Of a DNA stretch of 64,000 nt, positions 5,142 through 34,708 are shown piece after piece (position 1 is the first letter of the stretch; every line of letters starts with the position of its first letter). The translations under genes and the position numbers were made by a program. The notes beneath the pieces were generated by a model that saw only the letters and a program-made list of their open reading frames with translations, made no database searches and was not told where the DNA came from. Source of the stretch: Patescibacteria group bacterium. GTDB lineage: Bacteria > Patescibacteriota > Patescibacteriia > UBA1558 > UBA10009. The stretch is from NCBI GenBank assembly GCA_041662565.1, contig JBAZSE010000001.1, positions 257,084-321,083 of the forward strand. The letters are read 5' to 3'.

Positions 5142-6171
5142 TTATCTTTTGCCTTTTGCTTCGGCTTTTATTATTTCGGTTATCTTAACTTATTTAATCA
5201 AAGGGCTGGCTTTAAAGTTGGATATAGTTGATCGGCCGAGCGAACCCCGGAAAATTCATCACGTGCCTATCCCTAAATTGGGCGGGTTGGCAATTTATTT
5301 AACGGTTTTACTTTTAACCGTTATTTTTTATCAATCGGGCATGTTGCTTGACGGCAAAATCCAAGTTGCTTATTTGGTCGGTTTTTTAATCGGTGGGGCG
5401 ATTTTGATGTTAGGTGGCTGGTTGGATGATAAATACGATCTAAAGCCCGGCCAACAGTTTGTTTTTCCGGTGTTGGCCGCGCTTGTTGTTTTATTAAGCG
5501 GAATTTCGGTTAGCTATGTTACCAGCCCCTTGGGGGGCATTATTAATTTAACAAATACCTGGTGGCCGCCGATTTTGGTTTTTGTTTGGCTGGTGGGTAT
5601 GATGTATACTACTAAGTTTTTGGATGGTTTGGATGGTTTGGTTGGTGGAATTTCGGGCATCGGCTATATTATTCTTTTTTTGGTGAGTTTGTTTTGGGAT
5701 GTGCCCTTAAGCGGAACCTCGATACTTTGTTTGATTTTAGCAGGCTCGGCTTTGGGATTTTTGGTTTGGAATTTTTATCCGGCTAAGATTTTTTTGGGCG
5801 AAGGCGGTAGTTTGTTTTTAGGTTTTTCATTGGCCGTGCTGGCCATTATCAGCGGGGCCAAAATCGCCACAGCTTTGTTAATTATGGGTATTCCAATTTT
5901 GGATGTGGCTTGGGTAATTGCCAGACGCATTTTTAAAGAAAAAAAATCCGCCTTTTTGGGCGATAGCAAGCATTTGCATTTTAGATTGTTGGATGCCGGT
6001 TTAACCCAATCCCAAGCGGTTTTATTTTTATATCTGTTAACCTTGCTGTTTGGCTTAAGTTCTTTGTTCCAACAAACAATCGGCAAAATAATAACTTTGA
6101 TAATTTTGGGAGTGGTTATGCTGTTGTTGGCTTGGTGGCTGGTAAGCAGATATAAAAAAAGAATCGGTTAA
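5119..6171 (+). CDS. glycosyltransferase family 4, MraY/WecA-like polyprenyl-phosphate sugar-1-phosphate transferase
   Basis: 10-11 TM segments with DDxxDL and GxGGSLxLG motifs (DDKYDLKPG; FLGEGGSLFLGF). Confidence 0.7.
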   Translation: MALTVLNNYLLPFASAFIISVILTYLIKGLALKLDIVDRPSEPRKIHHVPIPKLGGLAIYLTVLLLTVIFYQSGMLLDGKIQVAYLVGFLIGGAILMLGGWLDDKYDLKPGQQFVFPVLAALVVLLSGISVSYVTSPLGGIINLTNTWWPPILVFVWLVGMMYTTKFLDGLDGLVGGISGIGYIILFLVSLFWDVPLSGTSILCLILAGSALGFLVWNFYPAKIFLGEGGSLFLGFSLAVLAIISGAKIATALLIMGIPILDVAWVIARRIFKEKKSAFLGDSKHLHFRLLDAGLTQSQAVLFLYLLTLLFGLSSLFQQTIGKIITLIILGVVMLLLAWWLVSRYKKRIG

Positions 6172-9969: not shown

Positions 9970-10222
9970 AGAATTAATAAAATCATCTTATCAGAAATCA
10001 ATTTAACAAACAACTGCATTTTTAACACCTTTTGCACTTTAAACTGTGGCTAACAAAAAAGCCGCTTAATTCAGGAACAATTTCTCAAAATACAACTACA
10101 ACCTCAATGTATTGGGGATTTTTCTAATGGAGTCCTGGTCGAGCTAAGCTCGATGGTCCGCATATTCACAATCTTTTTTCGATAGGGCTTTACTTTTAGG
10201 TATCTGGTGTTATTATAAAAGC

Positions 10223-10573
10223 ATGGTTGAAAATATGAGCAAAAACCGAAAAATAATTCTGGATAAACACGACGAAGCATTAACGGATTTTATTCGCACG
10301 GCGATTGACAAAGTTATTGCAAAAGCACATATGCCATCAGGGGTTGCCAAAAGAATTGTTAGTCGTGCTGTGTATCATCGGAATATGGGGCGCAAAGCCG
10401 CCATCGCTAATTACCCATTTAGCGGTATCTGTGAGGTAAGCGGGCTTCCTATAGATGACTCAATCAAGTCGCTTGATGAAATAGAGGGTGCCAAGGGCTA
10501 TGTTAGTGGGAATTTACGTTGGGTATGTCAAAAAGCAAATAATAATGGTACTGGAACTTGCGGTAAATGCTGA
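10223..10573 (+). CDS. small Endonuclease VII/HNH-fold-like protein with substituted catalytic histidines
   Basis: C-terminal pattern C-x...LDEIEG...GNLRWVCQKANNNG...CGKC resembles the Endo VII HLDHDH...RGLLCNLCN block, but has DEIE in place of DHDH. Confidence 0.3.
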   Translation: MVENMSKNRKIILDKHDEALTDFIRTAIDKVIAKAHMPSGVAKRIVSRAVYHRNMGRKAAIANYPFSGICEVSGLPIDDSIKSLDEIEGAKGYVSGNLRWVCQKANNNGTGTCGKC

Positions 10574-10640
10574 ATAAATCATTTCACATAGTATTACTTA
10601 TTTGCGAATTAAATAAAACAATTTATTTAAATATTTTTTT

Positions 10641-10832
10641 ATGAAAAAACAATTTTATACCTTTGTTATTTTAATTATTTTGTTTGTTGTTAGTACTTTC
10701 TATTGGTTTAATATTAGGCCGAGTGATATAAGAAAAACTTGTATAAATTACTCCATGGCTGATGCTGCAAATCAAGAAATTTTTTGGAATAATTATAAAT
10801 TTTGTCTTGCCAGTAAAGGTTTAAAAGAATAA
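10641..10832 (+). CDS. small membrane protein (1 TM)
   Basis: 63-aa ORF with one hydrophobic helix, in an AT-rich island. Confidence 0.3.
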   Translation: MKKQFYTFVILIILFVVSTFYWFNIRPSDIRKTCINYSMADAANQEIFWNNYKFCLASKGLKE

Positions 10833-10845
10833 TTTTATAAAGACA

Positions 10846-11481
10846 ATGAAAAAAATATTAGTAGTATTATTTTTAATTCCAATATTATCAGGGTGTTCTT
10901 TTATTAAAAATAATGTCGTAAAAAATAACAATATAGCCAAAACTGATAACTCAGCGCAGGACAACAATCTTAATTTAGCAACGACAACTGGCAATACACA
11001 AATAAGCAATTTAAATAATGATATATGTAAAACAGCTACTTTTACTCCGCCATTAGAACAAGAGATTGCCTATAATAACGAAATAAAACAAGATGAATAT
11101 GTAAAATATTTAAGGCGTTCGTTAGATGATTATTTATCTTCTAATTTTTCGACTCAATCTCGAGGTTTCGGACTAATTGATGGTATACACTATGCTGACT
11201 CCGCATATGGTAATTTTAATATGATCGACCCTGCTTATCTAAAAAGTAAATTTATAGTTTTATCAACTGATTTTAATCCATTTGGAGGCAAGGGAATAAC
11301 TTTAATATTTAAAAATAAGCCAGATAGAATATTCTATGCGTGGGTTTATAGATATATAGGAGTTGGTTATGATTTGCGTGATCTTAGTGATTACGAAAAA
11401 TTACAAGATGGCTCAAATGGTGTAAAAGAGGTTCAAGCGGGAGCTATTAATCAACTTTGTAATGACGAATTTGGTTTATAA
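10846..11481 (+). CDS. lipoprotein of unknown function
   Basis: Signal peptide with lipobox ILSGCSF, 211 aa. Local GC is very low (<30%). Confidence 0.5.
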   Translation: MKKILVVLFLIPILSGCSFIKNNVVKNNNIAKTDNSAQDNNLNLATTTGNTQISNLNNDICKTATFTPPLEQEIAYNNEIKQDEYVKYLRRSLDDYLSSNFSTQSRGFGLIDGIHYADSAYGNFNMIDPAYLKSKFIVLSTDFNPFGGKGITLIFKNKPDRIFYAWVYRYIGVGYDLRDLSDYEKLQDGSNGVKEVQAGAINQLCNDEFGL

Positions 11482-11673
11482 TTGATAATCAAATTGACTC
11501 GCTCAAGCGATATTGTTATAGTACTGGCAAAGTTAAAATCAATTGTTTTTTTGTGCTGGAATGTGGCAAGGCAAAAATTCTAATTGGGAATTTATAAGTT
11601 TTTATCATTTTGACTTTTCCAATGTTTTTGCTATAATGCCAGTGCTTAAAAAGTATAATATTAATTTACAATT

Positions 11674-12021
11674 ATGCTAAGATTAGCTAATTTATTTCGA
11701 CCAAAATTGCAAGATGAAGCCATGGATGCTTATTTTCATAGATTGCCCAATGGAATACAGGTAGAATGGTTTCGCGATGGGAATTTTATTATCGGTAATA
11801 TTTTTGCAGAGGGGAATAAGTATATGACTCAAGCCGTATCAGCCAATGAATTTATTGAGATGGTTAATGATACTTTATTGGCTGTTTATGATATTCCCAA
11901 AAACTATCAAAACGAACTATTAAAGTATAAAAAATTTAAGCCGTCAATTCAGGAATTTAATGATCTTAATAACGCCGCTATTAAAAAATCTTCGTTAAAA
12001 TTTGAAAAGCAATTAGCGTAA
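11674..12021 (+). CDS. HicB-like antitoxin N-domain protein (UPF0150-like)
   Basis: Pattern VEWFRDGNFIIGNIFAEGNKYMTQAVSANEFIEMVNDTLLAV fits the HicB N-domain consensus (vpdlpg..tqG.t.eEa..n..eai). It is adjacent to a HicA-like ORF. Confidence 0.4.
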   Translation: MLRLANLFRPKLQDEAMDAYFHRLPNGIQVEWFRDGNFIIGNIFAEGNKYMTQAVSANEFIEMVNDTLLAVYDIPKNYQNELLKYKKFKPSIQEFNDLNNAAIKKSSLKFEKQLA

Positions 12022-26289: not shown

Positions 26290-26462
26290 TTTTATAAAAT
26301 TGTTCATTAAATTGTTGATTTAAAAATCGCCGAGCTCGAAAGGGCGAGGCGAAGAGGAAGAAGTTGATTGAAGCCGGAGTGGCTTCGCGATAAGCGGAGG
26401 CACGGAGGCTGAAAGCAACTTTTGACGATCGGGAGTAGCTCAGTGGTAGAGCAGTTGGCTGT

Positions 26463-27010
26463 GAACACGGTCTTTGCTATAATCAGTTTATGGCTAAAGA
26501 CAAAAGAACCTATCGTGATCGCGCTGAATATCTTAAAAAAGCTGTTGATAAAAGGCGTAAGAGTTTACGTTTAATGGCTGTAAGATATAAAGGCGGCAAG
26601 TGTCAACTTTGCGGATACAAAAAGTGCATTCAAGCATTAGATTTTCATCATTTAGATCCTAAAAAGAAAGATTTTGGAATTTCAGAATCCGGAACAACAA
26701 GATCTTGGATGAAAATTAAAACGGAATTGGATAAATGTCTAATGATTTGTGCTAATTGTCATCGTGAAGTTCATCATGGTAAAACGCAGCTTTTTGCCGT
26801 AAGGCAGATTGAAAAATGAGGTGAACTCGGGGAAGCCTGAAATGGTAATCCCGAGCCAAGCCCTGATCTTGCTTAAGCAAGCGTCGGGGAAGGTGTAGAG
26901 ACTATCCTTAACAGGAGTACCTTGTAATGATTACAAGGGAAGCGCCTCATCTCCTAAAAGTTTTAGGAGAATGATATAGTCCACCCTTTAGAGAAATCTA
27001 GAGACAAGTG
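26463..27010 (+). mobile_element. group I self-splicing intron (~548 nt) carrying an HNH homing-endonuclease ORF
   Basis: The 5-prime exon ends in U and the intron ends in G, as group I splicing requires. R-like (GUAGAGACUAUCC) and S-like (GAUAUAGUCC) elements sit at 26895-26906 and 26973-26982. There is also a CGGGGAAGG P-like element. Confidence 0.55.
26490..26819 (+). CDS. HNH homing endonuclease (intron-encoded)
   Basis: CQLCG...LDFHHLDPKKKD...CANCHREVHHG: the classic HNH His-Asn-His/zinc-finger arrangement. Confidence 0.8.
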   Translation: MAKDKRTYRDRAEYLKKAVDKRRKSLRLMAVRYKGGKCQLCGYKKCIQALDFHHLDPKKKDFGISESGTTRSWMKIKTELDKCLMICANCHREVHHGKTQLFAVRQIEK

Positions 27011-27045
27011 TAACCAATTGGTCGTGGGTTCGAATCCCTCCTCCC

Positions 27046-27115
27046 GAGCCATTAAAAAACCACCAAAGAAATTTGATGGTTTTTTATTATTCCAAGATTA
27101 ACGATATTGAGGGAT
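27046..27115 (+). repeat. 70-bp direct repeat R, copy A (contains a terminator-like hairpin aaccaccaaa/tttgatggtt plus T-run)
   Basis: About 94% identical to 30092-30161. It begins at the GAGCCA 3-prime end of the tRNA. Confidence 0.6.
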
Positions 27116-27272
27116 TCGAACGGGCAGAAGCGAGGCAAGCCCTCAGGGCGCAGATGAGCGTCGACAAAAGCGACCAATCGGAAGCTTTTGGCGCTGCCCA
27201 GGACAACGAGACCCGCAAAGCGGGGCGAGGCGGAAATCTTTACCCGCCTTTGGCTGGCCTCCTCCCGAGCCA
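27111..27272 (+). ncRNA. GC-rich structured element ending in a second copy of the tRNA 3-prime end (GGCCTCCTCCCGAGCCA). Candidate small RNA or att-site remnant. It contains a tmRNA-like GGAUUCGAACGGG motif.
   Basis: About 60% GC in a 37% GC genome. It starts with GAGGGATTCGAACGGG, which resembles the conserved tmRNA 5-prime motif, and ends with a 17-nt match to the tRNA acceptor/CCA end followed by a terminator hairpin. Confidence 0.2.
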
Positions 27273-27360
27273 GTAAAAGTGCATCAACGATTGTTGGTGC
27301 TTTTTTAATAAATAAGCTTTTAAAAACCACAAAAATATGATAACATGTATTTAATAAAAA

Positions 27361-28620
27361 ATGCTTGAACAGGCAAATTGTATGAGAAATGTTTTTATAA
27401 AATTTATCCCTTTTTGGATTTTTCTAATTATCTATAAGCTAGGAGGCAGTTTGCACTATTCCTTAATCTCACCTCTTGGGGAAAGGCTTTTACCTTTATG
27501 GATTGTCGGGCTTTTAATGGGCGGCAGCTCAATTATCCAAATGTTGCTTGATGTTCCGGCAGGTCATTTTTTGGATCGCTTTGGTTATCTTAAACTGTTA
27601 AAACTAACGACTTTTATTTTTCTCTTTGCCGGCATTGCCTTTATTTTTAATTTTACCATTGCCACTTATATTATTAGCCTGATAGCCGCCACTTTCGGTT
27701 GGGTGTTGTTTGGTCCCGGAGTTAACGCCTATATTCTTTCTCAGGCACCTAAAAAAAATTCCGGCACTTTCATCTCCTTTAGGGATATTTTCGGCTCAGC
27801 TGGTGTTTTTCTGGCCAGCGCCGTTTTAGGCCTAGTACTTGCCTTAACTCCGACCACCATAGGAACAATAATATTCGCCATAATGCTGGCGGCACTGGCA
27901 GCGCTTTACTTTAGCCCTCCAGATACCATTTCTGTTCATCATGAACAAAAACTCCCCACACAACATCATTATATAAGAAGAAATTATCCTCATAAACTTT
28001 TGCCTATTTTAAAAAAGCTTAATCCGGCTAGTTCCATGCTTTTGCTAACAGGACTTACTTCTTCTATTTTTTACGGCGTCATCTGGTTTGTAGTGCCTAT
28101 AGTAATTGCCAATAGCGCTAACTCGGGCTTGCTCAGTATCGGTCTAGGTATTTTTGATTTTGCCATAGTAGCGCTTGGATTTCTATTAGGTAAGATGGCG
28201 GACAAAGGCAATAAAAGAACGCTGGTCTTTTTTGGATTGTTATTGTTTGCCGTATCGGGAATTCTGATCGGTTTTAATTTTAACTGGCTGTTCCTGGTTT
28301 TGGGATTTTTAGCTACCACTGGCGACGAAATGGCAAGCATTTCCTTATGGTCATGGTTGCATAGTTTAGATAAAGAACACGCTAATGATGGCCTGCTTTC
28401 CGGCGCCATTAACCTTTTTCAAGATTTGGGCTGGGCCATCGGACCGATTATTTCTGGATTTCTTTTTACCTTGATCGGGCCTTCATGGACTATTATGTTT
28501 TCAGCTGTCTTGTTATTCGCCACTTGGATTGTTTACCAATTTTTAATCAAACAGCACCGCCTGTCTTCAACCGGAATTGATATTCCTAAAAAGCCGCATC
28601 GAGCCAGGCATCATGTGTAA
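27361..28620 (+). CDS. MFS transporter
   Basis: 419 aa, 12 predicted TM helices, and an MFS-like loop motif (GHFLDRFGY). Confidence 0.75.
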   Translation: MLEQANCMRNVFIKFIPFWIFLIIYKLGGSLHYSLISPLGERLLPLWIVGLLMGGSSIIQMLLDVPAGHFLDRFGYLKLLKLTTFIFLFAGIAFIFNFTIATYIISLIAATFGWVLFGPGVNAYILSQAPKKNSGTFISFRDIFGSAGVFLASAVLGLVLALTPTTIGTIIFAIMLAALAALYFSPPDTISVHHEQKLPTQHHYIRRNYPHKLLPILKKLNPASSMLLLTGLTSSIFYGVIWFVVPIVIANSANSGLLSIGLGIFDFAIVALGFLLGKMADKGNKRTLVFFGLLLFAVSGILIGFNFNWLFLVLGFLATTGDEMASISLWSWLHSLDKEHANDGLLSGAINLFQDLGWAIGPIISGFLFTLIGPSWTIMFSAVLLFATWIVYQFLIKQHRLSSTGIDIPKKPHRARHHV

Positions 28621-28785
28621 GAAAAAGATATTTCACAATTTGTATAATAAGTTATAACCTCGTCTACTATGGTGAGCCACTAAAAAGGCCTTATTTTATA
28701 GGGCTTTTTTGATTGACCGCAAAAGGGATTAGAACTTTTCATAATTATCAAAATATGATAATCTATCTTTATAAGTATATCCAAT

Positions 28786-29640
28786 ATGAAAAATATTATT
28801 ATAGAAAAACCAATAAATGATTCCCTGCCAGCTCAATTATTATCTTTATATAATGCATTTAAAAATATTAAGGATGGCGAAGATTTAAATTTTGATTTGA
28901 ATAAACTGGTTTGGGTTAGTCCATTGTTGGTTTTACCTATCAGTGCTTACATCGGTTCAACTAACAGTAGTTATAATTTAGATAACTGTTCGGTTAAAGA
29001 ATATCTAAGTATAATTAATTTTCCAAAAGGAATTGATTCGGTATCGTCTTTAGACGAGGCTATGCAAATAAATAAAAGTTATATTCCGATTGGTAAATTA
29101 ATAAAAAATCTAGGCATAGAACGGGAGCGCCTGGAGTCTATGTTTAGTAAAATGATCTATAAAGTAGTTGATACTTCTGCGCAAGGAGCCAGAAGTGCGA
29201 TTTACTATCCTATTGAGGAATTGGTTGGTAATATTTTTGAGCATAGTAAAAAAGAGGAGGGTTTTATCTTTGGGCAGTATTACCCAAAAAAAGAATACCT
29301 GGATATTTGTATCGTTGATAGAGGCCGAGGATTAAAAGGTTCTTATAAAGAAGAGCAAAATATAATAATTACCGATGCAGAAGCTATTAACAGAGTGATG
29401 AGCGGTCATTCCGTTAAATCGGATATAGAGAGAGGTTATGGTGTTAGAACTTCTAAACGTGTAGTGTGCGAAGGTTTGGGAGGAAGTTTTATATTATTAT
29501 CAGGATCAGTCGCTTTAATTTCTTCCCAAAATCAAGACAAAATAGTTGAATTGCCAAATTTTTATTGGCAAGGTGTAATTGTTGCGTATCGAATTCCAAA
29601 ACCAATCAAATCATTTGATATTTCTAAGTATGTGGAATAG
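28786..29640 (+). CDS. GHKL/histidine-kinase-like ATPase domain protein (no HisKA domain)
   Basis: N-box-like ELVGNIFEHS, the G1 motif DRGRGL, and the G2 motif GYGVRTS in the C-terminal half. Confidence 0.5.
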   Translation: MKNIIIEKPINDSLPAQLLSLYNAFKNIKDGEDLNFDLNKLVWVSPLLVLPISAYIGSTNSSYNLDNCSVKEYLSIINFPKGIDSVSSLDEAMQINKSYIPIGKLIKNLGIERERLESMFSKMIYKVVDTSAQGARSAIYYPIEELVGNIFEHSKKEEGFIFGQYYPKKEYLDICIVDRGRGLKGSYKEEQNIIITDAEAINRVMSGHSVKSDIERGYGVRTSKRVVCEGLGGSFILLSGSVALISSQNQDKIVELPNFYWQGVIVAYRIPKPIKSFDISKYVE

Positions 29641-29678
29641 TATTACAAGTTATGTTATACTAAAAAAAGAGGAGAAAT

Positions 29679-30026
29679 ATGGAAAAAATTACTAAAAACA
29701 CTATAAAAATAGCCGATTTAGTCGCCCCTGTAATTAGCTCCAGGGATATAGCTCTTATTCTTAAGAGTAGTATTTTAAAGTCTAATTTCTCTATAGTTGA
29801 GTTGGATTTTTCTAATGTTGAATTTATTTCCAGGTCCGCCGCTCACAGCTTGATTTTAATGAAAGAAGATTTAAAAAGAAGATTTTTTAAAAAGAGAGAT
29901 GTAATTCTTGTTAATACCAATGAAGAGGTTAGTAAAATGTTGCGTATAATTGCGGCTAATAGAGTTTCCCCTAAATCCAAGCCCAATTTTAAAGCTGAAA
30001 AAATAGATATAACAACCTTGGCTTAA
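29679..30026 (+). CDS. STAS-like (DUF4325-like) small protein, partner of the upstream GHKL ATPase
   Basis: 115 aa with ELDFSNVEFISRSAAHSL, resembling anti-sigma-antagonist/STAS-like folds. It is probably translationally coupled to the GHKL ATPase gene, with a 38-bp gap. Confidence 0.4.
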   Translation: MEKITKNTIKIADLVAPVISSRDIALILKSSILKSNFSIVELDFSNVEFISRSAAHSLILMKEDLKRRFFKKRDVILVNTNEEVSKMLRIIAANRVSPKSKPNFKAEKIDITTLA

Positions 30027-30091: not shown

Positions 30092-30161
30092 GAGCCATTA
30101 AAAAACCACCAAAGAAATTTGATGGTTTTTTATTATTCCGAGATTAATGATATTAAGGGAT
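30092..30161 (+). repeat. 70-bp direct repeat R, copy B, followed (30186-30205) by a third 20-nt tRNA-3-prime-end mimic GAATCCCTCCTCCCGAGCCA
   Basis: Sequence identity with 27046-27115. The 20-mer is identical to tRNA positions 27032-27051. Confidence 0.6.
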
Positions 30162-30251
30162 GAGAAGTTTACACCTCGGAGGGGTGAATCCCTCCTCCCG
30201 AGCCATCAAAAAACATTAGTGAAAACTAGTGTTTTTTGTTATAATGTTTCT

Positions 30252-30428
30252 ATGAATAAAAACAGATTACTATATTTAATTCTCGGCATATTAGCCATAT
30301 TATTCGGAGCATTTCTGTTTGTTTATGGTGAATTTGACGATAGTCCTGGAGGACAAGTGATTGGCCTCGTATTGGCTATTACCGGCATTGTAGTTATTAT
30401 TAAGAGCAGGAAGCAAAATTTTAGCTAA
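30252..30428 (+). CDS. small 2-TM membrane protein
   Basis: MNKNRLLYLILGILAILFGAFLF... The ORF track extends further upstream into the repeat, but the internal ATG start is more plausible. Confidence 0.3.
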   Translation: MNKNRLLYLILGILAILFGAFLFVYGEFDDSPGGQVIGLVLAITGIVVIIKSRKQNFS

Positions 30429-30521
30429 GCTAAATCAGATCTAATTTTGTTTTAGGGGGCAAATCATAAGCCCAGGTTATTTAAAAGTACATTAAAGAAT
30501 TTTAGCGTACTTTTTTGTTTG

Positions 30522-30550
30522 TTTGACACTATATTATAAGGGTAGTATAA
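30522..30550 (+). promoter_or_regulatory. consensus sigma70 promoter TTGACA-17-TATAAT
   Basis: Perfect hexamers preceded by a hairpin terminator (30482-30516), upstream of ORF 30658-30984. Confidence 0.5.
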
Positions 30551-30657
30551 TAAGGATAGTATAACTTTAGGATTATTAAATCTTCTTTTCCATTGGTATG
30601 TGGACAAGCTAATGGATTGGCTGATAAATTATTTTATTATTAATAACAAATATCTAT

Positions 30658-30984
30658 ATGGAAAATAAATTCAAAAAAGGCCTTATCTTGGGCGGATTGC
30701 TCGCTGTTGGCGCGGCCATTGGCTTTGCTTTAACCAAAGAAGGCCAAGAATTAACCGAAGAATTGCAAAAAGACGTTAAAACTTTGGCTAAGCATTTAAA
30801 AAAGAATCTTGGCGATTTGGAAGATGTTACCAAAGAAAACTTTAATGAATTGGTGGATAACTTGGTTGAAGAGTATGCCGCCAAGCATGAACTGGCTGCT
30901 GAAGCCAAAATTTCCTTAATTAAGGCCTTACAAGCCAAATGGCATGAAATGGAAGAAGAATATTTGTCCGAGCAAGATAAATAA
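30658..30984 (+). CDS. YtxH-like/DUF948-like small protein (N-terminal TM, coiled-coil)
   Basis: N-terminal GLILGGLLAVGAAIGFAL followed by a charged helical region. Confidence 0.35.
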   Translation: MENKFKKGLILGGLLAVGAAIGFALTKEGQELTEELQKDVKTLAKHLKKNLGDLEDVTKENFNELVDNLVEEYAAKHELAAEAKISLIKALQAKWHEMEEEYLSEQDK

Positions 30985-31077
30985 AAGACGTAAGATTAAA
31001 AATAGGCAATTATAAAACCCGGATCTTTTAAGATCTGGGTTTTTTAAAGTTACAGAAAAGTGATAGGGATAACAAAT

Positions 31078-31287
31078 TTATTTTAACAACTCGTCTATGG
31101 TGCAACGTAAGGCGTCAGAAATCCTTTTAACGGTTTCTACTCGGGGATCCAGGGTAGCGCCGGATTCAATTTTAGTTATGGTATAAAGAGTTACGCCCGC
31201 TAACTTAGAGAGTTTATCTTGAGACAAACCGGCCTTTAAGCGGTATTTTTTGATATTTCTGGCAATAGAAATAGTGATTTCCGGCAT
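31078..31287 (-). CDS. XRE-family HTH transcriptional regulator
   Basis: 69 aa with IKKYRLKAGLSQDKLSKLAGVTLYTITKIESG, the Cro/C1 HTH pattern. Confidence 0.8.
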   Translation of the reverse strand: MPEITISIARNIKKYRLKAGLSQDKLSKLAGVTLYTITKIESGATLDPRVETVKRISDALRCTIDELLK

Positions 31288-31498
31288 ATGTTTGACAGTT
31301 TATTAATTTAATGGTAAAATTATACTATACTTATTTTATATATATTATTGTACTACCAAAATTATAATAGTAGTAAATCACCCTTTTTACCGATTTTTAA
31401 TTTAAGAAATACTAAACTAATATTAGTTTACATTAATTAAACTAAAAAAACAAGACCTAACTCCCTTATAAGTAAAAAATTAAAATTAGCTCAAGGAG

Positions 31499-32080
31499 GT
31501 GAAAAATATGGTAAATAATAAAGTAGATGAAAATATCAAAGAGTCAAAAGAAGTCGCCTTGCATTACATGAAAACATTAGTCGAGGTTGCCAGGGAATCT
31601 TTTTTAATTCTTGATTCCGAGCTTAGGGTTGTTTCGGCCAACCCGACTTTTTATCAGAGTTTTAAGGTTTCAGAAAAAGAAACCGAAAATATGCTTCTTT
31701 ATAATTTAGGCAATGGGCAATGGGATATTGTTGAACTTAAAAAATTATTGGAAGAAATTCTTCCGGAAAATAATGTAATTAAGGATTATGAAGTTACGCA
31801 TGTTTTTGAAAATATCGGACAAAAAACAATTGTGCTTAATGCCAGGCAAATTGATTCGGTGCAATTGATTATTTTGGCTATGGAAGATGTAACTGCTAAA
31901 AATCAGTTGGAACATAAATTATCCGAGTATACTAAAAATCTGGAAATTAAAATCGCTGAGCGGACCAAGCAGCTTACCATCAAAGTTAAGGAACTGGAAG
32001 ATCTTAATAAAAGCATGGTTGGCAGAGAAATAAAAATGGTTGAACTGCAGAAAACAATTGAAGAGTTGAAGAAAGATTAA
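31499..32080 (+). CDS. PAS-domain protein with C-terminal coiled coil
   Basis: PAS-like fold pattern in residues about 20-130, followed by a heptad-rich tail. Confidence 0.45.
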   Translation: MKNMVNNKVDENIKESKEVALHYMKTLVEVARESFLILDSELRVVSANPTFYQSFKVSEKETENMLLYNLGNGQWDIVELKKLLEEILPENNVIKDYEVTHVFENIGQKTIVLNARQIDSVQLIILAMEDVTAKNQLEHKLSEYTKNLEIKIAERTKQLTIKVKELEDLNKSMVGREIKMVELQKTIEELKKD

Positions 32081-32198
32081 TAACATTCAAAAAAACAGCT
32101 CGGGTTTTACTTTAACAAAAATTGAAGCTGTTTTGTTTATAATTTTTTGGTTTAAATTGAGGTTTTTTGAAATCTAAAAAAGTGGTATAATATGAAAT

Positions 32199-33722
32199 AT
32201 GAATACCATTTCAACAAAAAGAGTTTATTTCGTTGCAGTTGTTTCTTTAGTATTGGGAATCTTATTTGATTATCTGTTTTACGATAAACAAATAGGCATT
32301 TCATTTTTGATTTATGAAGTTTTACTCTTGGCCGGCTTATTTTGCTTTTTGTTTGCTTTTAAAATCCGGCCGGATAAGGCCGTTTTTTTGTTTTTGCCGG
32401 CAATTTTATTTTTTGCCTTAATGGTCGGGATTAGAGATAATATTTTTTTGCTATTTTGGAATGTTGTGATGACGATTGGTTTAATGCTGTTAATGGCGCA
32501 TCAAATAATCGGCCGAAAAATAAATCAGATCCTGTTTTTAGATTATCTTAAAACCGCCGTTATTGTGCCTTTTAGCATGTTAGGTAAATCTATTGGAGCT
32601 TTAGGTAGAATAATTGCCGTGGGTAAAGGCAATAAAGAGAACCAAAAAACTTCGCAAATTGCCAAAGGTATTTTAATTACCTTGCCCATTGCCTTGGCTT
32701 TTTTATTTTTATTAACTTCGGCGGATTTGGTTTTTAAAAAATTGCTTACTAATTTATTCAGTTTTAATTTTAGCATTAATCCCGATGTGGTGGCGCAAAT
32801 TTGGTGGGCCGCGTTTTTTGCTTTTTTGTGGCTGGGTGTTTATATTTACATTTTAGAAAATGCCGGCCAGCCGAAAAATTCCGAGCCGGATTTATTAAAC
32901 CGGATTTATAAGTTTGGCAATATTGAAGCCGGCATTTTATTTACTACCCTAAATGTTTTATTTTTGTCTTTTGTAATTATCCAAATAAAATATTTATTTG
33001 CCGGCCATGGCGCCATAACCCAATTCGGTTACACTTACGCCGAATACGCTCACAAGGGTTTTGGAGAGCTGATCGCGGTTGCTGTAGTAACTTTTGCCCT
33101 TGTTTTTTTGGCCGAAAAGCATATTGAGCGAAGTGAAAATAAACCCAACAGGTTATTTAAAATTTTAACATGTATTTTAATGCTGCTGGTAATAGTGATC
33201 ATGGCTTCGGCTTTTACCAGATTAGGCATTTATGAACAGGCCTATGGTTTTACCTTGTTGCGCCTTTTGGTTCAGGCCTTTATTATCTGGCTAGCCGTTG
33301 TATTTTTGTGGTTAACTTATAAAATTATCAGGAACACAAAAGATCGGCCGTTTATCTTTGGCATATTTTTGTCGGTTGTAACGTTTTTTGTCGTTTTTAA
33401 TCTGTTTAATCCCGATGCTTTTGTGGCTAAAAAAAACATCAATCAATTTGTTAAAACAGGCGCTTTGGATACCAAATATTTGTCAACTTTATCAGCGGAT
33501 GTGGTGCCTGATTTGATGCCATTGTTAGCCATGCCTCAAATCCAGGATAAATACGGTAATCAGCTGGCTATAGAGATTGCGTTCATCTTAAAGAATTTTT
33601 ATGATTTATCAGCCAAACAACCTTGGCAATCTTACAATCTTTCTCGCATAAGGGCTATTGAGCTGATAAATAGCCAGTGGGGTCTGATTTCAACCTTAGC
33701 CCAGAAGAAGTTAATTAATTAA
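32199..33722 (+). CDS. polytopic membrane protein of unknown function
   Basis: 507 aa with at least 10 hydrophobic helices. Confidence 0.4.
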   Translation: MNTISTKRVYFVAVVSLVLGILFDYLFYDKQIGISFLIYEVLLLAGLFCFLFAFKIRPDKAVFLFLPAILFFALMVGIRDNIFLLFWNVVMTIGLMLLMAHQIIGRKINQILFLDYLKTAVIVPFSMLGKSIGALGRIIAVGKGNKENQKTSQIAKGILITLPIALAFLFLLTSADLVFKKLLTNLFSFNFSINPDVVAQIWWAAFFAFLWLGVYIYILENAGQPKNSEPDLLNRIYKFGNIEAGILFTTLNVLFLSFVIIQIKYLFAGHGAITQFGYTYAEYAHKGFGELIAVAVVTFALVFLAEKHIERSENKPNRLFKILTCILMLLVIVIMASAFTRLGIYEQAYGFTLLRLLVQAFIIWLAVVFLWLTYKIIRNTKDRPFIFGIFLSVVTFFVVFNLFNPDAFVAKKNINQFVKTGALDTKYLSTLSADVVPDLMPLLAMPQIQDKYGNQLAIEIAFILKNFYDLSAKQPWQSYNLSRIRAIELINSQWGLISTLAQKKLIN

Positions 33723-33788: not shown

Positions 33789-33854
33789 ATGGCCAAAGGC
33801 AATAATTCGCGCAGAAAAGAAACCAAGAAACCAAAAAAAGGCGCTAAAAAATAA
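33789..33854 (+). CDS. 21-aa Lys-rich peptide MAKGNNSRRKETKKPKKGAKK (not in ORF track)
   Basis: Extended -10 promoter TGTGGTATAAT at 33749-33759, then the ORF, then a hairpin terminator at 33866-33898 (aaccccg...cggggtt plus T-run). Confidence 0.3.
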   Translation: MAKGNNSRRKETKKPKKGAKK

Positions 33855-34456: not shown

Positions 34457-34708
34457 ATGTATTACCTTTATTTGGTTAAATGCTCGGATGCCACTTTGTA
34501 CGCCGGCATAACCATTGATTTAAAAAGGCGGATTAATGAACATAATGGTTCGCCTCTGGGAGCAAAATATACCAGAGGCCGCAGGCCGGTTAAGCTTGTT
34601 TTTTTTAAAAAGTATAAGAATAAATCTTTAGCTACCAAAGCCGAGTCCAAAATTAAAAAACTATCCAGAACGGAAAAATTAAAATTATGTATAAAAAAAT
34701 CATTATAG
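34457..34708 (+). CDS. GIY-YIG nuclease family protein (YhbQ/UPF0213-like)
   Basis: MYYLYLVKCSDATLYAGIT...RRINEHN, the GIY-YIG core. Confidence 0.8.
   Translation: MYYLYLVKCSDATLYAGITIDLKRRINEHNGSPLGAKYTRGRRPVKLVFFKKYKNKSLATKAESKIKKLSRTEKLKLCIKKSL

Follow-up and report, generated by a model that had tools for sequence, protein, structure and literature searches.

The locus described here raises two questions: what a kinase-type gene and a small partner gene can do when no effector is encoded beside them, and how such a pair reached its present place. It lies in a 64,000-nt stretch of DNA (the window) of a Patescibacteria group bacterium (assembly GCA_041662565.1, contig JBAZSE010000001.1) and consists of gene A (28786..29640) and gene B (29679..30026), both on the + strand; the residue numbers given below refer to their products. 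We favor, with somewhat more confidence than doubt, the view that A-B is a two-gene system composed of a sensor kinase and its STAS partner, of the type represented by CapK-CapS and VapK-VapS, i.e., a bare phospho-switch, probably stress- or phage-responsive, and mobile. The architecture and the mobility of the pair are more certain than this overall reading, and its role in defense, suggested by genomic context and by relatives, is less certain.

The comparisons were based on a set of genomes of the candidate phyla radiation (CPR), with one genome per species and 41 A loci, and on a second, independent metagenome set, with 74 loci having enough sequence to look for B. The closest relative of the window is locus L001 (Komeilibacteria), whose A protein is 89% identical to that of the window.

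A two-domain kinase-type protein and its STAS partner

The two open reading frames (ORFs) reported in a preliminary description of this DNA, which had been made from the letters alone, were reproduced, with products of 284 and 115 aa and an intergenic gap of 38 nt. The following features were recognized:

28786..29640, + strand: gene A, 284-aa kinase-type protein with a STAS-like N-terminal domain and a GHKL domain, VapK/CapK-like
28786..29175, + strand: N-terminal domain of A (aa 1-130), alternating beta/alpha and weakly STAS-like by AlphaFold2, Foldseek and alignment with VapK
29176..29637, + strand: GHKL (Bergerat-fold) ATP-binding domain of A, predicted from invariant motif columns
29218-29247, 29317-29331 and 29428-29457, + strand: N box, G1 and G2-like motifs of A, respectively
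29679..30026, + strand: gene B, 115-aa STAS/DUF4325 partner, above the Pfam cut-off for STAS
29739-29747 and 29829-29837, + strand: motifs S21-R22-D23 and S51-R52-S53 of B, followed by a conserved tail (aa 87-98)

The ATP-binding motifs of A do not vary among 20 aligned homologues: (i) the N box, ELVxNIFEHS, with invariant E145 and N149, (ii) G1, D178-x-G-x-G182, with invariant D178, G180 and G182, and (iii) the G2-like motif, E215-RGYGVRTSK-224, with invariant G217 and G219. The only Pfam family detected in A was HATPase_c (17.9 bits, residues 140-237, under the gathering cut-off of 26.4); neither HisKA nor any other Pfam family was matched, and HATPase_c_2 was among those not matched in the Pfam scan. 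GHKL motifs without a HisKA domain are what the preliminary description had reported, and the ATP-binding residues, whose loss it had named as a ground for dismissing its proposal, are intact. The AlphaFold2 model of A (pLDDT 88, pTM 0.90) contains two domains. Since the presence of two domains in the query depresses the TM scores of full-length A, the first 130 residues were modelled and searched again alone. They form an alternating beta/alpha fold (pLDDT 88) and their Foldseek neighbors in the PDB are almost all STAS proteins (4hyl, an anti-sigma antagonist; RsbV 6m36, MlaB, TM1442, RsbS and SpoIIAA), with scores below significance (best E 0.26, TM 0.36-0.49). This part of A carries near-invariant W43 and P46, aligns to the STAS domain of VapK by hhalign, and is probably STAS-like. 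In sum, A joins a weakly STAS-like N-terminal domain to a GHKL domain in which every ATP-binding residue is retained.

CapK and VapK are the nearest relatives of A that have been characterized. CapK is an HTH-STAS-GHKL kinase (HTH, helix-turn-helix) switched on by single-stranded DNA (ssDNA), which phosphorylates a conserved serine on STAS helix 2 of CapS, a repressor composed of STAS and winged helix-turn-helix (wHTH) domains and encoded directly downstream of CapK (Chambers et al., EMBO J 2026, PMC13373217). In the VapKSC system, VapK (STAS-GHKL, ~296 aa) phosphorylates VapS (a STAS domain with a short C-terminal helix, ~116 aa), by which the PIN toxin VapC is freed (PMC13373217). CapK-CapS regulate immune operons (CBASS, Bub, Thoeris and others), while VapKSC is a toxin-antitoxin/anti-phage system; in both systems, sensing falls to the kinase and the output to the STAS protein (PMC13373217). 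Using the VapK, VapS, VapC, CapK and CapS sequences of Appendix Table S2 of PMC13373217, the A-family profile was aligned with VapK by hhalign at 95.4% (E 1.9e-8) over 256 columns spanning both domains, and with the GHKL core of CapK at E 3e-5. By hmmsearch, VapK and CapK gave 1.7e-8 and 7e-8, respectively, and tblastn matches of CapK were found in 43 loci, down to 9e-6. Judged by these alignments, A is a remote full-length homologue of VapK, with a GHKL core common to CapK. The earlier name "orphan GHKL ATPase" undersells a two-domain protein homologous to ssDNA-activated kinases, and the description had passed over the 130-residue N-terminal domain.

Other searches with A were less specific. 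Full-length A gave weak Foldseek matches in the PDB to Hsp90, GyrB, TopoVI-B and histidine kinases (E ~2e-3, TM 0.2-0.3), a viral structure library yielded a 233-aa phage protein (E 1e-7) and several phage "histidine kinase-like ATPases", and a PDB sequence search with the A profile returned nothing at E <= 1. The PADLOC profile of DrmA, a component of DISARM, shares the GHKL region with A (positions 137-251, E 5.5e-8), this GHKL type being located near the N-terminus of the profile. No NCBIfam model covers A or B, and no HTH family was matched by either protein at E <= 1 (Pfam). The identity of the top structural matches (Hsp90, GyrB and TopoVI-B, not SpoIIAB), the similarity to the N-terminal part of DrmA and the fusion of the module to superfamily 2 (SF2) helicases, described below, could indicate that A is not a kinase but a GHKL ATPase resembling MORC, Hsp90 or topoisomerases, which would serve as a clamp or work on nucleic acid while B is its adaptor or regulator. 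We consider this improbable, since the structural matches are weak, significant homology was obtained only with VapK and CapK (the latter experimentally shown to be a Ser kinase), A has no transducer or dimerization domain typical of such ATPases, and a STAS protein that always accompanies A and has invariant serines is what one would expect of a kinase substrate.

Protein B passes the Pfam cut-off for STAS (PF01740; 26.5 vs. 22.6 bits), in agreement with the STAS-like pattern described before, and the string quoted for it, DFSNVEFISRSAAHSL, corresponds to residues 43-58. Of the profile hidden Markov model checks that had been proposed, only this one was passed: HATPase_c in A and DUF4325 (PF14213) in B, at 14.6 bits against 23, remained below their cut-offs. 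Within the B clade, STAS was matched by 22 of the 23 members and DUF4325 by 10, sub-threshold. ORFC of the Methanothermobacter prophage psiM100, which at 29.4 bits is a genuine member of DUF4325, matches the B profile with an hhalign probability of 97.3%. B, which is below the DUF4325 cut-off but homologous to ORFC, therefore represents a sister clade and not a formal member of this family, and the label "DUF4325-like" was right in substance. The sole PDB sequence match of the B profile, TM1442 (E 0.087), is too weak to classify the protein. Invariant columns of B comprise S21-R22-D23 and F49-x-S51-R52-S53-A-A-H56 (F-x-S-R-S-A-A-H), and its tail is conserved at M87, R89, A92-A93-N94 and P98 (M87-LRIIAANR..P98). 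The D-S-S*-F motif of CapS lines up with S-R-S-A of B, and with S-R-S-F of homologues from outside the CPR, which would place the acceptor on S53. By analogy with the characterized relatives, the putative acceptor is a serine at the start of helix 2, most likely S53 and possibly S51, but the assignment is ambiguous (see below).

The two genes are strictly linked. A has 301 close homologues (280-286 aa, 54-62% identical), whose named sources are all Patescibacteria/CPR lineages. B lies 30-90 nt downstream of A in 41/41 loci of the CPR genome set and is again the neighbor of A in 74/74 independent metagenome loci (115/115 in total), as expected of the self-contained two-gene module that had been proposed. 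When all flanking ORFs were clustered, no third conserved gene emerged, the next commonest family being present in 6/42 loci. A Pfam scan of the 142 ORFs located <=1.7 kb from the pair showed no recurrent sigma factor, PP2C, PIN or integrase family; the flank families comprise housekeeping genes (L10 and L12, three times each) as well as AbiEii, DUF3800 and Fic. PP2C/SpoIIE was absent from the families common to >=2 of these 142 ORFs and from the window between 23 and 35 kb, and a tblastn search with VapC (E <= 0.01) of the window and 129 related loci gave no match. In the window, the gene downstream of A-B encodes a small membrane protein.

These neighborhoods bear on partner switching of the RsbW/RsbV or SpoIIAB/SpoIIAA kind, in which A would be an anti-sigma factor and B its antagonist. 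The analogy drawn in the preliminary description was correct in that A-B is a GHKL-STAS pair, and incorrect as to the closest kin, VapK and CapK being closer than RsbW and SpoIIAB. In its favor, Joint Genome Institute (JGI) annotations label some members "anti-sigma regulatory factor" or "anti-anti-sigma factor", B exceeds the STAS cut-off, and a dnaG-rpoD pair lies upstream in the window (rpoD 2.5 kb from A-B) and in L001. These are, however, the only two loci with rpoD upstream; L003 contains a weak, 26%-identical RpoD-like match ~4 kb away on the opposite strand, and neither sigma, PP2C nor RsbU/X families recur among the flanking ORFs. No sigma regulon thus accompanies the pair in relatives, and the reported lack of an adjacent sigma or phosphatase partner holds across the family. 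Moreover, A has a 130-aa domain absent from RsbW and SpoIIAB and no HATPase_c_2 match, and a patchy, repeat-flanked, phage-borne distribution is unlike that of a core regulator. Sigma-factor partner switching was rejected on gene neighborhoods; it is largely refuted and, in our estimation, very unlikely.

Typical A-B loci of the CPR type (L016, L017 and several titled "uncultured Gammaproteobacteria" or "Saccharibacteria") were found in bins labelled Omnitrophota, Latescibacter or Gammaproteobacteria. This reflects either mis-binning or mislabelling of metagenome-assembled genomes, or transfer outside the CPR.

A repeat-flanked cassette in the window and in the CPR

The A-B pair is an accessory, horizontally moving cassette of ~1.3 kb. 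This view is based on its patchy distribution, its lower G+C content, the host sequence (3' ends of tRNA genes or rplL) found duplicated on both sides of it, its place in arrays with toxin-antitoxin-like cassettes and its prophage-borne homologues. In the window, G+C is 0.32-0.36 over 28-33 kb vs. 0.39-0.43 in the sequence on either side; the value for the pair is 0.33, vs. ~0.40-0.43 in its flanks. As the criterion of mobility, exact repeats of >= 20 nt within 700 nt on both sides of A-B were used. Such repeats flank 12/39 pairs of the genome set vs. 4/1119 pseudo-cassettes from the same loci, and 11/33 pairs of the non-redundant metagenome set vs. 2/293; with real units of one or two genes as the control, the result for both sets is 23/71 non-redundant loci vs. 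1/261 (Fisher p = 3e-16). When extended, the flanking repeats are 20-156 nt long and 89-100% identical, and they are composed of local host sequence: tRNA-Lys 3' halves (L040), the rplL 3' end (L033, L084 and L108) or other gene ends with a terminator and the promoter-like motif TTTTTTGGTAnnAT. In 9/21 cases the distance from repeat to repeat is 1287-1386 nt, i.e., just the two genes, and the left repeat may stop 5-19 nt short of the A start codon. No attachment (att) core or shared cassette-end motif was found across the 21 repeat-flanked loci. Same-strand tRNA ends are present <=500 nt upstream of A in 8/71 loci vs. ~1.4% expected, with the window and L001 as two further cases.

The motif TTTTTTGGTAnnAT, a terminator T-run with an extended -10-like element, was also observed 5-25 nt upstream of start codons in many CPR loci (e.g., L011 7978-7993, L012 5208-5223, L095 4981-4995 and L040 ~7985). 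Where, as in several loci, the duplication includes this motif, the inserted cassette receives its promoter from the host.

It could be argued that the repeats are incidental, reflecting either assembly artefacts or a general abundance of repeats between CPR genes, and that the pair is vertically inherited, as many repeats contain terminator hairpins and the common TTTTTTGGTAnnAT, and neither an empty site nor a recombinase was recovered. We give this explanation very little credence. The controls are nearly free of repeats (the 4/1119, 2/293 and 1/261 given above), the repeats include, beyond hairpins, 3' coding ends of upstream genes and tRNA halves, and the insertion context differs in nearly every genome, with A ~55% identical. 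In addition, at matching repeat units the window has a neighboring cassette that L001 lacks (see below), and the pair of psiM100 is annotated as part of an inserted fragment without counterparts in psiM2.

In the window, the pair belongs to an array of the order tRNA/R1, short remnant, R2, major facilitator superfamily (MFS) transporter, R3, A-B, R4 and R5, where R1-R5 are five alignable units of the form "GAGCCA + hairpin":

26429..27051, + strand: tRNA gene anchoring the array, exons assigned by eye, with an Rfam RF00028 intron
27033..27120, + strand: R1, true tRNA 3' end, bidirectional terminator hairpin and inverted T-arm copy GAGGGATTCGAAC
27258..27306, + strand: R2, 15-nt copy of the tRNA 3' end and a terminator hairpin (terminator-like site at 27281-27300), upstream of the MFS cassette
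27361..28620, + strand: MFS transporter cassette (Pfam MFS_1, E 8.5e-30)
28674..28735, + strand: R3, left edge of the A-B cassette, composed of GAGCCA, a hairpin with a T-run, and then GGGATTAGAAC
30092..30166, + strand: R4, right edge of the A-B cassette, 93% identical to 27046-27120 behind the tRNA
30187..30245, + strand: R5, 19-nt copy of the tRNA 3' end, AATCCCTCCTCCCGAGCCA, and a hairpin

The repeat-bounded mobile cassette of the preliminary description was confirmed by the 75-nt direct repeat (27046-27120 and 30092-30166, 93% identical), by the copies of the tRNA 3' end and by the enrichment of flanking repeats across the family; R3, directly upstream of A, and the intron-split tRNA at the left end had been missed. 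R3 can be aligned with R1 and R4 and with its ortholog in L001 (5983-6068). The tRNA 3' end, CCTCCTCCCGAGCCA, is present in three copies vs. a chance expectation of 0.01, the extra ones being located at 27258-27272 and 30187-30205.

The array-anchoring gene is probably a tRNA-Thr(UGU), with a perfect 7-bp acceptor stem (TCGGGAG/CTCCCGA) and the anticodon loop CT|TGTAA (by eye). A group I intron (Rfam RF00028, 71.6 bits, E 3e-16, 26723-27003), which contains an HNH homing-endonuclease-like ORF (26490-26819), splits the gene behind U33. Neither ARAGORN nor the Rfam tRNA model detected the split gene, which ARAGORN misses because of this intron. L001 has the same tRNA, with an intron of ~200 nt and no HNH ORF, followed by two repeat units and then directly by A-B, without an MFS gene. 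The segment 27239-28673 of the window is missing from L001, while the DNA on either side of it can be aligned; synteny stops at 30103, inside R4. The MFS cassette is therefore a presence/absence polymorphism at repeat units, and this gene with its own "tRNA-end + hairpin" unit is a second cassette of the array, with an ordinary, non-defense function. Some 60 nt beyond the 3' end of the tRNA, its T-arm is found in inverted orientation as GAGGGATTCGAAC (reverse complement of GTTCGAATCCCTC), and this copy turns up again in the cassette-separating repeat units. It was located at 27108-27120 and, with one mismatch, at 28723-28735 (the R3 copy) in the window, and at 5867-5879 and 6050-6062 in L001; it could be the arm of a recombination site.

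To the right of the pair, a block of the window (30147-33722, G+C 0.32-0.34) stands in place of ~6.9 kb of L001, and similarity returns only as a conserved stretch of 51 nt (33789-33839). The block encodes a small protein with two transmembrane segments, a YtxH-like protein, a divergent XRE-family HTH protein, a protein composed of a PAS domain and a coiled coil (193 aa, no output domain) and a DUF4153 membrane protein. Stand-alone genes of small GIY-YIG nucleases (Pfam 64.5 bits) were observed in the window (34457-34708, + strand) and in L040 (7611-7907), where the ORF is located between two tRNA-Lys copies, reads into the second one and lies just upstream of A-B; these genes seem to be cassettes of the same arrays. 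Another stretch of low G+C in the window (10001-12000, 0.30-0.33) may be a further acquired segment.

Across the family, arrays in which the repeat occurs three or more times hold cassettes of AbiEi/AbiEii, Fic+HTH, NUDIX, HD, pyrimidine 5'-nucleotidase, PD-(D/E)XK nuclease, DUF3800, GIY-YIG and MFS proteins, often of a toxin-antitoxin-like or nucleotide-acting kind. The company of AbiEi/AbiEii, Fic+HTH and DUF3800, together with the strict pairing with a small downstream gene and the fact that no third gene is needed, would suit a toxin-antitoxin pair stabilizing the array as an addiction module, in which A is the toxin (a promiscuous kinase or an anti-sigma-like protein that binds an essential factor) and B the antitoxin or pseudo-substrate; with no phosphatase present, any switch would be one-way. 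Such a module is unlikely, albeit with an appreciable residual probability: in the characterized relatives it is the STAS protein that provides the output, the kinase being a sensor (PMC13373217), and a toxin gene followed by an antitoxin gene after a 38-nt gap is not the commonest layout of these systems.

Two candidate routes of insertion were considered for the cassette: (i) a trans-acting integrase, with accretion at tRNA or rplL 3' ends resembling that of cis-mobilizable elements (CIME), which may be proposed by analogy, and (ii) homologous recombination of the Campbell type, by which a circular "repeat + cassette" would enter conserved sequence. No recombinase was found inside the cassettes, and no integrase family recurs <=1.7 kb from the pair. 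An integron cassette was rejected, as the repeats are host tRNA, rplL or other gene ends and terminators and not attC-like; no integrase family recurs in the flanks and no attC-like element was seen in the repeats, for which no dedicated attC model was run. A look-up of the downstream YtxH-like protein gave a single 1.8-kb contig, starting at ~30110 of the window near the beginning of R4, and was uninformative.

Relatives in Bacteroidota, archaea and phages

The pair extends well beyond the CPR, to Bacteroidota, archaea and temperate phages. A search of 1.84 billion representative proteins with the A profile yielded 3195 clusters (50% identity) at E <= 1e-3, including 912 at E <= 1e-10 and 205 at E <= 1e-30, many of them full-length (290-310 aa); "hypothetical proteins" of Sphingobacterium are named examples. 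Next to the genes of A relatives from outside the CPR there is again a downstream homologue of B (105-118 aa; hhalign 97.8% and 95.4%), whose products score just below the DUF4325 cut-off and carry the motif F-M-S-R-S-F/Y-A-D. In two proteins of Bacteroidota/metagenomes, P0314 (1376 aa) and P0315 (1370 aa), the whole A module forms the C-terminus of a defense-type SF2 helicase that matches the PADLOC models "possible alternative Cas3" (541 bits) and DpdF. A distant relative of A in Lachnospiraceae, without a B gene, is located between neighbors of defense type, the PADLOC PDC-S02 and AbiD genes.

Phage-borne pairs were identified as well. Bacteroides phage BF1-TP2 carries the pair gp43/gp42 behind its lysis genes, annotated as "ATP-binding protein" and "DUF4325 domain-containing protein"; gp43 shares 36% identity with A (E 1e-27) and gp42 aligns to the B profile (hhalign 97.3%). 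In the Methanothermobacter prophage psiM100 the pair is ORFB/ORFC (MTH315/MTH316), with 26% identity between A and ORFB (E 5e-14), and lies within the annotated "inserted fragment IFa", whose ORFs have no psiM2 counterparts (GenBank annotation). IFa (L130, 2954-5938) holds the pair and a 492-aa ORFD, beside three 125-bp tandem repeats; this insertion, unexplained for 25 years, now has a family assignment. In the gene table of Francisella phage KIRK a 293-aa gene is followed by a 112-aa DUF4325 gene (Fhv_0046/0047; PMC7924643), which, from this published table alone, is probably a homologous pair. A scan of IMG/VR with peptide patterns of the close family gave nothing, while tblastn against GenBank phages later gave remote homologues, and no direct repeats were found around the phage-borne pairs. 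Matelska et al. described a VapC group "transcriptionally coupled to DUF4325" (PMC5499597), which fits VapKSC.

Proposed mechanism and comparison with known systems

On the analogy with CapK and VapK, A would sense a stress or infection cue (ssDNA in these two kinases, where it binds between the STAS and GHKL domains) and phosphorylate B on the conserved serine of helix 2, probably S53; W43 of A, a near-invariant aromatic residue in the aligned region, is a lead for a putative ssDNA contact. Phosphorylation would flip B between a bound and a free state. The pair carries neither a toxin nor a DNA-binding domain, and its output would therefore have to be a trans-encoded host target or the freed kinase. 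Since the cassette works in very different hosts without an effector, B would most likely hold a conserved, trans-encoded host factor, with the invariant tail M87-LRIIAANR..P98 as the candidate interface; alternatively, the released kinase A might itself be the effector. With no phosphatase present, the outcome would be a one-way growth-arrest or defense switch.

Several points weigh against this reading. B shows no significant similarity to VapS past the LDFSNV strand (hhalign 5%, hmmsearch 0.0044) and no detectable homology to CapS past the same strand motif. Both the alignment with the TM1442 model and a by-eye alignment with VapS put the acceptor position, i.e., the canonical phospho-serine, on R52, so a serine acceptor in B needs a register shift of one residue; the acceptor spacing also differs by one residue between CapS and VapS themselves. 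The phosphorylation of B by A is drawn from characterized relatives, the STAS label of the N-terminal domain of A from insignificant Foldseek scores and an hhalign register, and the output is a guess, no effector having been found. PADLOC has no model for the pair itself, only the GHKL region shared with one DrmA profile, and MFS and ribosomal genes among the neighbors mean that the context is not a clean defense island. Finally, a search of JGI metagenomes for an empty site, in which the end of the tRNA would directly adjoin the DNA beyond R4, gave 0 matches.

A bolder form of the phospho-switch model can be formulated, which we hold to be rather unlikely. According to it, A-B would be a minimal, effector-less ssDNA switch of the CapK/VapK type, whose STAS partner acts on a universal host machine across CPR classes, archaea and phages, and the pair would travel as a passenger of an undescribed, recombinase-less CPR cassette system that inserts units of one or two genes, duplicates 20-156 nt of conserved host sequence (terminators, tRNA or rplL 3' ends) and builds integron-like arrays of defense, toxin-antitoxin and nucleotide-metabolism genes.

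Pairs of a GHKL-STAS kinase and its substrate (CapKS, VapKSC) are already known, and the pairing of "ATP-binding" and DUF4325 proteins is visible in annotations. What appears to be new is (i) the link of this uncharacterized pair to VapK and CapK, (ii) the existence of a large effector-less two-gene form, (iii) its prevalence in CPR bacteria and (iv) its behavior as a 1.3-kb repeat-flanked cassette. CapK/CapS and VapKSC were described only in 2026, each with a DNA-damage-sensing kinase in control of an obvious output (a repressor domain or a PIN toxin); the target of a stripped-down switch would show what the core does alone and could reveal a conserved host target. The immune repertoire of CPR bacteria is poorly known, and A-B is one of few widespread candidates for a stress/defense module in CPR/Patescibacteria. 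The repeat-flanked cassette, with no recombinase on board, also offers a statistically solid handle on the movement of accessory genes in reduced, uncultivated genomes.

Among known mobile elements, CIME of the streptococcal families of integrative and conjugative or integrative and mobilizable elements are integrase-less, att-flanked islands accreted at tRNA or rplL 3' ends. The A-B cassettes resemble them in direct repeats that duplicate the 3' ends of tRNA genes (window, L040) or rplL (L033, L084, L108), and in tandem cassettes parted by the same repeat with no recombinase inside. In contrast to CIME, they are only 1.3-2 kb in size, their repeats have no core common to different genomes, the junction may sit 5 nt from a start codon, and no cognate integrase is present in the data.

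As for the proteins, the SpoIIAB/SpoIIAA and RsbW/RsbV systems share with A-B the GHKL Ser-kinase fold and a single-domain STAS partner. They differ in that no sigma factor or PP2C phosphatase is linked to A-B, that A contains an additional N-terminal domain of 130 aa and does not match HATPase_c_2, and that the canonical DSSG phospho-site of SpoIIAA/RsbV is S-R-S in B. The annotated "ATP-binding + DUF4325" pairs keep the order of A followed by B, and those of BF1-TP2 and psiM100 encode directly homologous proteins, whereas the CPR clade of B scores higher for STAS than for DUF4325. In CapK-CapS, too, the GHKL kinase has a STAS domain in cis and the next gene encodes a STAS-domain substrate; unlike CapK, A has no N-terminal HTH and starts straight with the STAS-like domain, B (115 aa) has no C-terminal wHTH DNA-binding domain of the CapS type, and the pair has no conserved downstream immune operon, the downstream genes varying in nearly every locus. 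VapKSC, known from Proteobacteria, differs from the A-B pair of CPR hosts in the possession of a VapC/PIN gene, absent from the window and the 129 related loci, in the serine register, which is off by one residue, and in that the CPR pair forms a repeat-flanked mini-cassette. A and B (284 and 115 aa) match VapK and VapS in size, domain order and gene order, and the N box NSFEHSK of VapK is nearly identical to NIFEHSK in A, but the sequence of B shows no detectable homology to VapS past the LDFSNV strand.

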